Positions 32,166-36,008 of a stretch of DNA of 64,000 nt are shown here, one piece after another (positions within the stretch are counted from its first letter, which is position 1; each line of letters begins with the position of its first letter). This DNA is from an uncultured Nitrospiraceae bacterium (GTDB lineage: Bacteria > Nitrospirota > Thermodesulfovibrionia > Thermodesulfovibrionales > UBA6898), in the NCBI GenBank assembly GCA_963811165.1, contig CAWEQH010000008.1, positions 512,001-576,000 on the forward strand, written 5' to 3'. The translations under genes and the position numbers were made by a program. The notes below the pieces were generated by a model. The model worked only from the letters and a program-made list of their open reading frames with translations, was not told where the DNA came from and searched no databases.

Positions 32166-33620
32166 ATGGGCGATTATATGTATAAATTATTCTTGCTCGC
32201 TTTAATATTCTTAATGTGGCCTATTAGTGACGCTAATGCATACACACTGCCCGACACCGGACAGACTACCTGTTATGACGCCTCAGGCAATGCCATAGCC
32301 TGTCCTGTCCCCGGCCAGCCCCTGGCACAGGACGGCACATACAACTTCTTGCCACTTTCCTATACCGATAACGGAAACGGCACAATAACGGACAATAACA
32401 CCGGTTTAATCTGGCAGAGGCAGGATGACGGGACATTAAGGACATGGGATCAGGCGATTGCCTATTGCACCGGGCTTAATCTTGGCTCGCTCTCGGGCTG
32501 GCGGCTTCCCAACAGACTTGAGTTGACCGGTATCGTCAACTATGGTCCGCCCTCTCCCGGACCTGCTATTCATACCGCCTTTACAGGGACCAAGTCGTCA
32601 TATTATTGGTCCGCTACGCCCTGGGCGATAAATCCTGTCCTGGCGTGGGAGGTCTACTTTGACGATGGCGAAGTGCTGCCTGCTGACAAGGGTTTGGCGA
32701 GGTATGTTCGATGTGTTTTAGGCGCAGAAACCCAGGGCCCGAATTTTGTTTATAACCCTGATGGTACGGCGACTGATACAACGACGGGTTTAATATTAAC
32801 GTCTGCACCGGCCGCAGCATGGGAGGGGGCCATTGCCTATTGTGAGGATCTGAGTTATGCAAATGAATCAGACTGGCGGCTGCCGAATATCAGGGAAATT
32901 GGGTCTATCTATGGAATGCTTGTTACCGATGAGACTTTGGTATTTATTAGTTCCAGTACGAATTCGGCCAGTCGGAGCAAGGCTTGGGGAGTCAGCGCCA
33001 ATGTTGTAAATAGCGGCAGCGTGTATTACTATGATAAAGGCATCGACACTTTTAGCGTCTTTTGTGTCCGGGAGGGGTACCCCGGGCTGTACAAGTTGGA
33101 CATTACGAAGACTGGCAGCGGCGCAGGAACAGTTATGAGTACTCCCCCCGGTATTAGCTGCCCGGATCCAATGACCTCATGCCATACGTGGTTTCCGGCC
33201 AACAGGCCTGTAAAGCTCACCGCAATCCCTGATGTCGGGCCGTTAATCCTTGGACCATATGTCTTCGGAGGATGGAGCGGAGACGCAGACTGCACCTATG
33301 GGCAGGTCACAATGGACACGGAGAAGGCATGCACCGCAACTTTTTCTCTCTGTGGGAACTGGGACAGGGCGCGTGTCCCGGGCGCAACAAGAGATTCTAT
33401 TAACCAAGCATATATTTGGGCGGTAAACAACGACGTCATTAAGGTAAAGGCTTCAAACAAGGCCGAATCCGTGTCTTTTTCATTGCCAATAAACGTTTAC
33501 CTTATTGGCGGATATGACTGCAATTTTACTCGCGTGAAGGGGGCATATTCCGTAATTACCGGCTCCGTGACTATTCAATCAGGCGCTTCTGTAATATTCG
33601 ACAATATCGTGATCATGTAA
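32166..33620 (+). CDS. Secreted double DUF1566 (Lcl C-terminal) protein with beta-rich C-terminal domains
   Basis: Signal peptide; LPDTGQTTCY, DNGNGTITDNNTGLIWQ, WRLPN twice, YWS, VRCV; KTGSGAGTV...FGGWSG repeat-type domain. Confidence 0.85.
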   Translation: MGDYMYKLFLLALIFLMWPISDANAYTLPDTGQTTCYDASGNAIACPVPGQPLAQDGTYNFLPLSYTDNGNGTITDNNTGLIWQRQDDGTLRTWDQAIAYCTGLNLGSLSGWRLPNRLELTGIVNYGPPSPGPAIHTAFTGTKSSYYWSATPWAINPVLAWEVYFDDGEVLPADKGLARYVRCVLGAETQGPNFVYNPDGTATDTTTGLILTSAPAAAWEGAIAYCEDLSYANESDWRLPNIREIGSIYGMLVTDETLVFISSSTNSASRSKAWGVSANVVNSGSVYYYDKGIDTFSVFCVREGYPGLYKLDITKTGSGAGTVMSTPPGISCPDPMTSCHTWFPANRPVKLTAIPDVGPLILGPYVFGGWSGDADCTYGQVTMDTEKACTATFSLCGNWDRARVPGATRDSINQAYIWAVNNDVIKVKASNKAESVSFSLPINVYLIGGYDCNFTRVKGAYSVITGSVTIQSGASVIFDNIVIM

Positions 33621-33884
33621 AAGAACAATTCCTGGGGATGCATCGGACTCTTCCTATGAAGATCAGAGAGATGCTCGATGGACTCCTTCTGGATAGGGGA
33701 TTCTCATAGACACCGCTCAATCATCATCGCAGCGTTATCCCGGATTTCTTTTGTAAATCCGCAATAGTTTCGATTTGAAAGACCTGTTGGTTCGTCGGTG
33801 CTATACGTAACAAAATTAATTGATTCTTAGAACCACCGAGGGTCATGATCAATCCTGCTTTTTCAAAGAGAAAGAGGAGGAACA

Positions 33885-34883
33885 ATGACCCAGGCAGGTT
33901 CAATTCTCAGAGCAAACAGCAGTGAAATCGAAGCAGTAAATTATCAGGCACCCTCCTATTGATCGCATTCTCCAGAAGATCTCGAAGATGGAGCTTCCCG
34001 ACAGGGAGCACATCGAGAGCTACATGCGCCACAAGTGGAGAATGAACCACAAGCCAAGCACTCTTAAAGGCAGCTTCACGCTGTGAGTTCCTTTCTCATT
34101 TTCTATGCTGGCTTAGGGAAGAGTCAATTAAAGATATTGTCAGTGACGATATGGAGGCATTTATCGAACATGAGCAGGATCGGGGGCTCAAAGTCACAAC
34201 GGCCAGAACACGACTTCATAGCAACTGTGGGCTTTCATGAGGTTTCTGATCGATCAGGATATCATTAATGAACATATACTTAAACGCAAGATCAAACTGA
34301 AAGTGCCGGATTTCCTGCCAAGGGCCATTGCCCCTGGCGATGTCAGAAAGCTTCTCGGTGTCATTAAAGAGATTCGTGACCGTGCCCTGATCCTCGTACT
34401 CTTACGAACAGGCATGAGAATCGGTGAACTTCTCGGCATGAAGATGATAGATCTTGATGTCCGTGAGAAAAAGATACACATCTATGAGGGGGAAAAGAAC
34501 TGTCTTGGACGAGTGGTCTATCTCAGCGATGATGCACTGATGGCCTTAAAGCTCTGGCTCAGCAAGAGAGAAAGACAAAAGAATATCTCTTCTATGGCCT
34601 GAGGAGTCACTTATGTTACACCACGGCCCGGAATATCTTCACACGATACTTGAGGGAAACAGGGCTGCAGGACAAAGGCTATACGATCCACAGCCTCCGG
34701 CATACCTTTGCAAGTGAACTGCTCAATGCCGGCATGCGCCTGGAATGTCTGCAATTGCTGTTGGGGCATCGCGACATAGAGATGACCCGGCGATATGCTC
34801 GCCTGACTGATAAAAGCCGGGAAGAGGAATACTTCCGTGCCATGGTGATTATCGAGCAGGGAGGCATTCATGGAGCCTACTGA
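33885..34883 (+). pseudogene. Tyrosine recombinase, multiply frameshifted
   Basis: GAGGAGG RBS + ATG 33885; fragments in shifting frames include RTGMRIGEL, HSLRHTFA, LLGH, TRRY. Confidence 0.8.
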
Positions 34884-35778
34884 TGCGATTGCCAGGTACC
34901 GGAGATTCCTGAAGCGAAGGAACTATTCGGCACACACGGTGAAAAACTACATGAATATTCTCGGTCACTTCAGTGTCTGGCTGCAGGTTCCTATAGAGCA
35001 GGTAACCTCCAAAGAAACCGACGCATATATGGATCATCTATTGAGAAGGAGAAAGAAACCAAAGACTATCAACTGTCATTTCGGCTGCATCCATGCCTTC
35101 TACGAGTATCTGATCGAAGACGAGGGAATGCCTCTTACCAATCCGGTAAGAAAGAATTATAGGCTGCGTCTGCCCAGGCCACTGCCCAAACATCTCAGAG
35201 ACGAACAGGTTGTGGCACTCTTCAACGAAATCAGTGATGCCAGAGATCGGGCCATGTTCATGCTGATGCTCAGGTGCGGTCTGCGTGTTGAAGAGGTTGC
35301 ACGACTGACAGTAGATGCGATAGAGTATCGCAGCAGACAGCTTTATGTCTTCAATGGCAAAGGCAGCAAGGACAGGGTTGTCTATCTCAGCGACGATGCG
35401 CTGAGCGCCTTAGAGGCGTATATGCAGAAACGGAAATGGTCTAAGGAGAAAAGAGTGTTCTTAGTGCAGAAGGGGCCGCTGAGAGGAAAGCCGATATCGG
35501 TTCGCGGCATTCAAAAGAGGATTGAACACTATGCACAGAAGACCGGGATACAGGTATCCTGTCATCACTTGAGACACACTATGGCAACCCAGCTCTTGAA
35601 CGCGGATGCCGATCTCGTCACCATTCAGGATCTGTTGGGCCACAGCCTGATTACTACAACCCAGTGTTATTGTAGAGTCTCCAATCTCAAAGTACAGAGA
35701 GATTATTACAAGGCCATAAAGGTTGTAATGCAGAGGACCCAGCCAATAAGAGAAGATGACTTTGAATTGGAACGATAA
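34870..35778 (+). CDS. Tyrosine recombinase/integrase (XerD-like), apparently intact
   Basis: SAM-like N-terminus; RCGLRVEEV, GKGSKDR, HHLRH, LLGH, TTQCY. Confidence 0.92.
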   Translation: MEPTDAIARYRRFLKRRNYSAHTVKNYMNILGHFSVWLQVPIEQVTSKETDAYMDHLLRRRKKPKTINCHFGCIHAFYEYLIEDEGMPLTNPVRKNYRLRLPRPLPKHLRDEQVVALFNEISDARDRAMFMLMLRCGLRVEEVARLTVDAIEYRSRQLYVFNGKGSKDRVVYLSDDALSALEAYMQKRKWSKEKRVFLVQKGPLRGKPISVRGIQKRIEHYAQKTGIQVSCHHLRHTMATQLLNADADLVTIQDLLGHSLITTTQCYCRVSNLKVQRDYYKAIKVVMQRTQPIREDDFELER

Positions 35779-36008
35779 AAGTGCTCATGGAGAGCAGGCT
35801 TAACTAACTGAAAACACAAGAAAAAGCAGGTTATGTTACGTATAGCGTGGTGGATCTGATAAAGGGACGGTGCATGGTATGGGGAAAAGCGTGGACGCCG
35901 GCCTTGTTAACTGCTGGGTCTTTTCCCTTTGCGACTGGCAATCGCGGAAATAGGTGGCCGGATTCGCGGGAATCTCCACTATGATATAATTTCTTAAGGT
36001 CCTTAGTC

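Follow-up and report, generated by a model that had tools for sequence, protein, structure and literature searches.

A minimal element of two tyrosine recombinases belongs to an apparently undescribed transposon family and probably inserts into a repeated intergenic host site

Two tandem tyrosine recombinase genes between short inverted repeats, found in a 64,000-nucleotide stretch of DNA from an uncultured Nitrospiraceae bacterium (the window), raise the question of whether so little can make up a transposable element, and of how and into which sites such an element would move. An earlier note on this DNA had proposed that it is a minimal transposable element with two recombinases, from a poorly described family. 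We find that the window copy is a real but degenerate member of what is apparently an undescribed family of minimal tyrosine-recombinase transposons.

The 16-bp terminal inverted repeats with one mismatch, as first described, lie at 33800–33815 and 35831–35846; a comparable pair is present in 2 of 300 random 3.1-kb windows of the genome. The arms proper extend from 33801 to 35845, the outer G and C of that repeat being part of 7-bp words. By the inverted repeat, copy comparison and end alignment, the left terminal arm, CTATACGTAACAAAA, occupies 33801–33815 (plus strand) and the right terminal arm, TTATGTTACGTATAG, 35831–35845 (minus strand). At 33801–33807, the TATACG after the first C corresponds to the inner six bases of the loxP arm, possibly by chance. 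A promoter-like pair, TTGATT and CATGAT separated by 18 bp (33820–33849, plus strand), is kept across the aligned left ends and may function as a promoter. The sub-terminal motif CCTGCTTTTTC follows at 33854–33864 (plus strand), and its inverted copy lies directly inside the right arm at 35820–35830 (minus strand). Both occurrences had been pointed out before and prove to be conserved in the family: allowing two mismatches, the motif is recognizable in 87 of the 90 left ends and in 80 of the 84 on the right. It is likely an accessory protein-binding site. The additional AGCAGG reported near the right end (35793) recurs in a single one of 84 right ends, which is the window's own.

Between the arms are two tandem tyrosine recombinase genes, intA (33885–34883, plus strand) and intB (34870–35778, plus strand), which overlap by 14 nt, and no third gene. 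The gene content and the overlap thus stand as the earlier note gave them, but the first gene is not intact. intB encodes 302 residues without interruption. In intA, about 335 codons long when intact, five frame-shifting indels near 33950, 34075, 34130, 34215 and 34570 distribute the coding sequence over three frames, as scored against the nearest intact relative (L024, 92% alike). Against the nearest relative, the four copies in the genome carry 5, 1, 2 and 7 such indels in intA (15 in total), and three in intB, all in copy D. The intA frameshifts may be assembly or sequencing errors; if they are real, loss of IntA may be favoured. The window copy appears to have lost intA, or to have been mis-sequenced there, and would need IntA in trans.

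The two proteins are 30% identical to each other and measure about 335 (IntA) and 310 (IntB) residues across the family, within a range of 300–340. Neither reaches the cut-off of the XerC, XerD or integron integrase models, an intact relative being used for IntA. The catalytic residues R, K, H, R, H and Y are kept in 59–60 of 60 IntA and 67–68 of 68 IntB sequences; these counts exclude L102, in which a deletion fuses the two genes. In a quick tree, IntA and IntB form separate clades with similar branching, the IntA branches being longer. Among the best 150 relatives, 35 (P0124, P0127, P0130, P0135 and 31 more) are proteins of 600–790 residues with two or more recombinase stretches. In the top ones the first half resembles IntB more closely and the second half falls with IntA in a quick tree, so that a fused sister family in reverse order is possible.

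The genome (G000) holds four full copies, the window copy included, which are 85–94% alike and have unrelated flanks, together with one short fragment. Homology among the copies ends at the termini, a few bases past the inverted repeat as first drawn. In a scan of species genomes that gave 243 stretches, the best 80 came from Nitrospirota, deltaproteobacteria or Thermodesulfobacteriota, and one Gemmatimonadota. When 20 of these genomes were searched whole, each held 1 to 12 matches, with 12, 6, 6, 5, 5 and 5 in six of them. Even samples of two phyla gave matches in 17 of 401 genomes of another phylum, at 30 loci that lie outside the family analysis, and in 1 of 301 genomes of the window's phylum (E 1e-60, at most seven candidates scored per genome), the sole match being the window's own genome; this scarcity is not evidence of absence, because short-read bins lose repeats. 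A protein search yielded 7,995 matches among 8,000 scored, the top 120 at 85–93% identity and many on contigs of 1–3 kb, as expected of a repeat that breaks assemblies. A plasmid or phage vehicle was sought in 72,556 plasmid and 50,697 phage records, with no match at E 1e-30. The 15-base left arm occurs in 51 viral contigs, none with a recombinase match within 2.5 kb, and there was no RNA holder among the matches listed.

We assembled 161 loci, which reduce to 105 distinct flank pairs (a few one-ended rows repeat a site), 70 of them with both ends. One locus with a false right end (L030) was left out of all counts, another with an insertion in intA (L027) lost its left end, and copies within one genome or lineage are non-independent events. 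The complete elements have a median length of 2,070 bp, 64 of 70 falling between 2.0 and 2.3 kb, and none has a third recombinase. At least 450 nt outside IntA and IntB homology were found in three, two of which have 1.2-kb insertions; the odd elements comprise these two, one with a deletion and three with a tail ORF of 85–96 codons. Both reading frames are long in about 60 of the 70, a figure biased for intB, which was the query, and 27–133 nt separate intB from the right end in most. Terminal arms are 11–15 bp. Left ends consist of the arm, a TTGAY-18-CATNAT promoter-like pair, CCTGCTTTTTC and a ribosome site, and right ends of the arm with the motif directly inside. IntB diverges within the two-gene family down to about 60% identity. 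The proposal of a minimal element has thus survived the observations that could have spoken against it, a constant third recombinase, larger cargo, or homology running on past the repeats.

This anatomy recalls the RIT elements, which are cargo-free, occur in several copies per genome and have overlapping tyrosine recombinase genes between inverted repeats (PMC3414803; PMC8138268, each in part). RITs differ in having three genes, about 3.5 kb and repeats of 28–34 bp (same sources), as against two genes, 2.05 kb, arms of 11–15 bp and a defined 7-bp word here, a distinction of description and not of protein comparison. Three adjacent tyrosine recombinase genes, the hallmark of RITs, are not present, and 67 of 70 elements lack any 450-nt stretch outside IntA and IntB. 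The tandem overlapping genes between inverted repeats, and the RITs with missing genes that PMC3414803 records in the part available to us, would allow for a RIT that lost one gene or for the decayed remnant of a larger island. We find this hardly credible, given that both ends are intact and the two-gene form is constant in 70 complete elements; the best matches among the 72,556 plasmid records are about 33% identical, and several of them are XerD.

The right end had also been likened to the E. coli dif site, through a 9 of 11 match to the XerD arm. The match exists, but equal matches number 763 in the genome, and it is not conserved: the TTATG form is present in 22 of 84 right ends and 0 of 90 left ends. 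Its polarity is wrong as well. The TTATG end of the XerD-like 11-mer points into the element and lies 15 bp away from the crossover. In the dif-like site of the host at C10:322034 (minus strand), which has a perfect XerD arm and is likely the chromosomal dif site, TTATG abuts the centre instead. That the element ends are dif-like and that host XerC and XerD take part is therefore highly improbable, even though the host has XerD along with this dif-like site and a GAT core is common to the host target arms and the left arm of the C10:322034 site. The centre is 7 bp, not 6 bp, and the element encodes two enzymes of its own with intact active sites. A pdif-type crossover of XerC arm, 6 bp and XerD arm does not fit the 7-bp centre, the symmetric arms and the polarity of the 11-mer, and a dif reading of the host target was rejected. 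Besides XerD, the host has an XerC-like gene, an integron integrase and a few more recombinases, and no host site has any of them nearby. The XerC-like gene (C9:89891-90729) is broken in the assembly; the integron integrase (L231; G000 C10:705647-706939) has 431 residues and scores over the NCBIfam cut-off.

The earlier note had reported no clear target duplication and did not mention that the host target is structured, that 7-bp words mark the crossover or that the first gene is broken. For the family, the absence of a duplication is wrong: a 7-bp word lies outside each arm. In 42 of 63 copies the two words are identical, and in 21 they differ. In the window, the left word is GTCGGTG (33794–33800, plus strand) and the right word CGTGGTG (35846–35852, plus strand), which share GGTG. 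Identical words are fixed per lineage, for example CACCTAC, CTTGCCA and CATGTCG. Mismatch is concentrated among copies near the window's IntB (19 of 27, versus 2 of 35 distant copies). Read from the 3′ base to the 5′ base, the left and right words of the 21 mismatched copies agree in 21, 19, 19, 14, 4, 6 and 7 cases; L051 and L102 are the mismatched copies that differ within the last three bases. The right word of a mismatched copy recurs as the right word of another copy in 19 of 21 cases, the left word in 2 of 21.

The origin of the two words can be read from the genome itself. The right word is CGTGGTG in every one of the four copies, and the left word is either GTCGGTG or ATCGGTG. Among the 36 free host sites, 13 have GTCGGTG as their word and none has CGTGGTG. 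In a congener, G002, the counterpart of copy D's left flank can be followed for 1,309 bp (89% identity), GTCGGTG included, after which the DNA is different and holds no element. Since this element-free orthologue carries GTCGGTG, the left word is the host's; the right word is carried by the element. A fully orthologous empty site with both flanks was not found. An exact TCGGT-GTGGTG junction, tried as the empty site, gave three chance matches, the empty site keeping the host word only. Some near-identical elements have different words (CGCGGTG, CAGGAAG; among L025, L047 and L029, and L077, L089 and L169), and some words are reverse complements between lineages (CAGGAAG and CTTCCTG; words starting with CACC and words ending in GGTG). 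The word is therefore replaceable or can be flipped.

A joint of right end, 7-bp word and left end is seen on one metagenome contig, L118, where the word is the right word of L118, the one word available for comparison there. It is the sole clean right-left joint among 19 matches to the joint pattern and could represent a circle, a tandem copy or an assembly product. In three or four of the others an end stands beside a degenerate arm, and the rest are unrelated. Such an end adjoining a degenerate arm is found at L106, L113, L116 and L117, an arrangement that one element inserting into another's end would leave. Contigs of eight public runs gave no circle joint among the joints listed. Two further loci, L104 (1092-1118) and L107 (1913-1939), have a perfect joint of arm, CACCTGC and arm with no recombinase gene in the locus; these may be solitary core sites or joints of non-autonomous relatives.

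Taken together, these data make it probable, on balance, that a widespread 2-kb element with two recombinases moves as an arm-7-arm circle and inserts into a repeated intergenic host site. That it is a tyrosine-recombinase transposon in the broad sense is suggested by the dispersed copies and the partly orthologous empty site, and a two-enzyme element is supported by the four copies at unrelated flanks and by the catalytic positions kept in both proteins. First, the ends would be joined into a circle that keeps the right word. Tyrosine recombinases cut strands at the borders of the overlap, and pairing is needed next to the cut. In the window's clade, three or four matching bases at the 3′ side of the word would suffice, and one strand pair would be exchanged at that border. 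Exchange of the bottom strands there would leave the host word at the left end and that of the element at the right end. The second exchange would be blocked because the 5′ bases of the word are mismatched, so that replication would finish the reaction by resolving the junction. The other exchange would yield the mirror image, in which the two words trade places and which is not seen among the family copies. In distant lineages, where the words match fully, an ordinary two-step exchange would be possible. A precedent for a single exchange with one-sided overlap homology followed by replication is the CTX phage at dif, as described in part of PMC3442271; CTX differs in using host XerC and XerD and a folded single strand (same source), and no folded substrate was seen here. 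Several observations count against the proposed mechanism, among them that just one of the 19 joint-pattern matches is a clean joint, that L051 and L102 differ within the last three bases of the word, and that all four copies in the genome have at least one intA frameshift. The mismatched copies may move again or be dead ends; static genomes are compatible with both.

It is possible, if doubtful, that the element excises and integrates by two ordinary exchanges as a phage does, the mismatched copies being dead ends and the fixed right word reflecting perfect donors elsewhere and biased repair. The 42 of 63 copies with identical words, 33 of 35 among distant copies, fit such a cycle, and in G323 one perfect CAGGGTG copy could be the donor of five mismatched copies. 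A strand bias would still be needed for the one-sided outcome, however, and G324 has no perfect copy among its three copies with both ends. Nor does the window's genome have a perfect copy, yet the right word is common to its four copies, which differ by up to 15%.

A copy-out reaction of the kind known from strand-biased circularizing elements (SEs) and Tn554 would give the same final geometry. In these systems, as set out in the available part of PMC10214605, two catalytic tyrosine recombinases, short inverted ends and target specificity are combined with a word of 6–7 bp, the target's at the left end and the circle's at the right, and each new insertion receives at its right end a copy of the left word of its donor. 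The two-recombinase family shares the two enzymes, the (here putative) promoter at the left end and the placement of target word and circle word, but it keeps its right word. We consider copy-out very unlikely, as the right word would change with each move whereas here it stays the same, and no copy in G000 or G324 has it as its left word; a Tfp, Srap or TnpC gene is also lacking. SEs have four core genes and a median length of 15.7 kb (PMC10214605, in part), in contrast to 2 kb and no cargo here, and the core genes of SE and GInt (intA, tfp, intB, srap or ginA-D) are absent from the family. Tn554 has TnpC and one large recombinase (PMC10214605, in part); here there is no TnpC, and in place of an ordinary and an abnormally long recombinase both proteins have 300–340 residues. 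Tn554-like pairs without TnpC have been reported in Actinobacteria, with one protein of 611–828 residues (PMC3414803, in part).

Across 149 non-redundant flanks, the sequence outward from the word shares wAATCnnCA on both sides. This half-site differs from the element arm at the second, fifth and eighth base; the second base out is A in 116 of 149 target flanks and T in the element arm. A second, inverted half-site is found 21 bp further out, at an offset of 30 from the word (149 flanks; permutation p 0.0002). It is on the left where the word ends in GGTG and on the right where the word begins with the reverse complement, CACC. The side thus flips with the word, which ties this accessory half-site to the host site and not to the direction of the element. 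At the window copy, the accessory half-site AAATCCGCA lies at 33755–33763 (plus strand), 21 bp left of the left core arm and inverted relative to it. The left core arm, TGTTGGTTC, identified from the flank profiles, occupies 33785–33793 (plus strand; family consensus TGnnGATTw), and the right core arm, GATCTGATA, which matches its consensus wAATCnnCA weakly, 35853–35861 (plus strand). The adjoining genes are an Lcl-domain gene and a radical SAM gene. The former (32166–33620), directly left of the host site, encodes a 484-residue protein with two Lcl C-terminal domains and is a typical variable surface-protein gene.

A target profile trained without the four sites of this genome ranks all four within the top 45 of 7.3 million positions. 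Before iteration, the profile gave 20 sites versus one in shuffled DNA at a score of 20; the iterated profile gave 40 (4 occupied, 36 free) versus none, a contrast that iteration inflates. A strict target pattern found 11 sites in 5 of 41 genomes, and a reversed control one. The free sites are intergenic, 6 of 36 lying inside an ORF compared with 119 of 150 random places, and the host sites are clustered, 22 of 40 lying within 12 kb of another against a random mean of 8.8. Among pairs of sites, five share only the left flank, two only the right and none both, several of the breaks falling at the word; G001 and G006 have the same break within a shared host site. By these sequence comparisons, flanks are reassorted at the host target sites. 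Neighbouring genes are of many kinds: accessory-looking genes for metabolism, signalling and defence predominate, and some are core genes (60 of 131 nearby ORFs scanned). At L309 (G000 C8:2500-22499), four host sites lie in 14 kb with a ThiF/DUF6791 gene, a piece of a restriction-modification methylase, a NERD nuclease and many unknown ORFs, and the locus resembles a defence-island-like array of modules. A 1.25-kb IS3-like element with HTH_21 and rve domains is present in G000 in five near-identical copies (C1:481417-482665, C8:90618-91868, C10:814063-815312, C4:710137-711386 and C4:55193-56442), two of which end 44–45 bp left of the word of a host site, one beside copy B.

Other identities for the target were tried and rejected. 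The attC sites of integrons have the core consensus GTTRRRY/RYYYAAC at the crossover. An attC core was present in 2 of 36 free sites; in 85–92-nt windows, the mean fold z-score was about −0.3 on both strands, unlike an attC hairpin. Nor is there an attC array: the nearest site is 41 kb from the host integron integrase, and flanking genes are in both orientations. A riboswitch or other RNA was sought with Rfam at seven loci, which gave one tRNA and one sub-threshold match.

How the two enzymes share the work is the weakest step of the proposed mechanism, a guess in which one would act on the element arms and the other on the host half-sites. Both stay catalytic, and the element and target arms are each symmetric but different, which suggests one enzyme per kind of site. 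Under the target profile, element arms score mostly about 0, compared with 2.6 for targets and −2.9 for random flanks; as the element arms outscore random flanks, one relaxed enzyme could bind both kinds of arm. Target-type half-sites inside the element ends gave no clear peak, and palindromy of the target arms at individual sites, beyond the consensus, was weak. In a bolder extension, which we judge unlikely, a pair of split specificity and a 7-bp word, no more than three or four bases of which must match, would program landing. The host sites, neither integron nor pdif, would then be joints for the shuffling of gene modules, driven in trans by the target-binding enzyme of the element, which would be both parasite and motor.

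Two further systems invite comparison. TnPZ of Helicobacter, with XerT, has a 7-bp direct repeat, inverted ends of 13–14 bp, many insertion sites and a Xer-like enzyme, but measures 39–55 kb and has type IV secretion genes and one recombinase (PMC2731543, in part). The family described here shares the 7-bp repeat and the short inverted ends; its length is not tens of kilobases, it carries no type IV secretion cluster and, in place of a single XerT, two recombinases and nothing else, and its word differs between lineages. IS1202-family elements at pdif are likewise small elements homing on recombination sites that border gene modules, but are described in the available parts of PMC10132070 and 10.1101/2022.12.17.520857 as having DDE transposases and inserting beside Xer sites, whereas the two-recombinase element inserts into the 7-bp centre of a non-pdif site. 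By gene content, the family is not RIT, Tn554, SE or TnPZ. We did not find it in the parts of the literature on tyrosine-recombinase elements available to us, nor in the available part of a recent preprint (10.64898/2026.01.13.699239), and the supplements of PMC3414803 and PMC8138268 may list members; a 2-kb family of two recombinases is thus apparently undescribed in print.

Five groups of prokaryotic tyrosine-recombinase transposons were listed in 2023 (PMC10214605, in part), and from the portions of PMC10214605 and PMC3414803 available to us, neither the need for several such enzymes nor the movement of RIT and GInt is settled. The two-recombinase family is the smallest form, with two enzymes in 2 kb, no helper gene and a sharply defined set of arms, word and target, so that two purified proteins and short DNA would be enough to test the division of labour directly. 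An integrase pair this compact, with a requirement for only a few matching bases, could have uses as a tool too. The element behaves like an insertion sequence without the usual transposase, and is therefore annotated as XerD and breaks short-read assemblies. Its target would reveal a repeated intergenic site for the exchange of gene modules in uncultured bacteria of sediment and soil.
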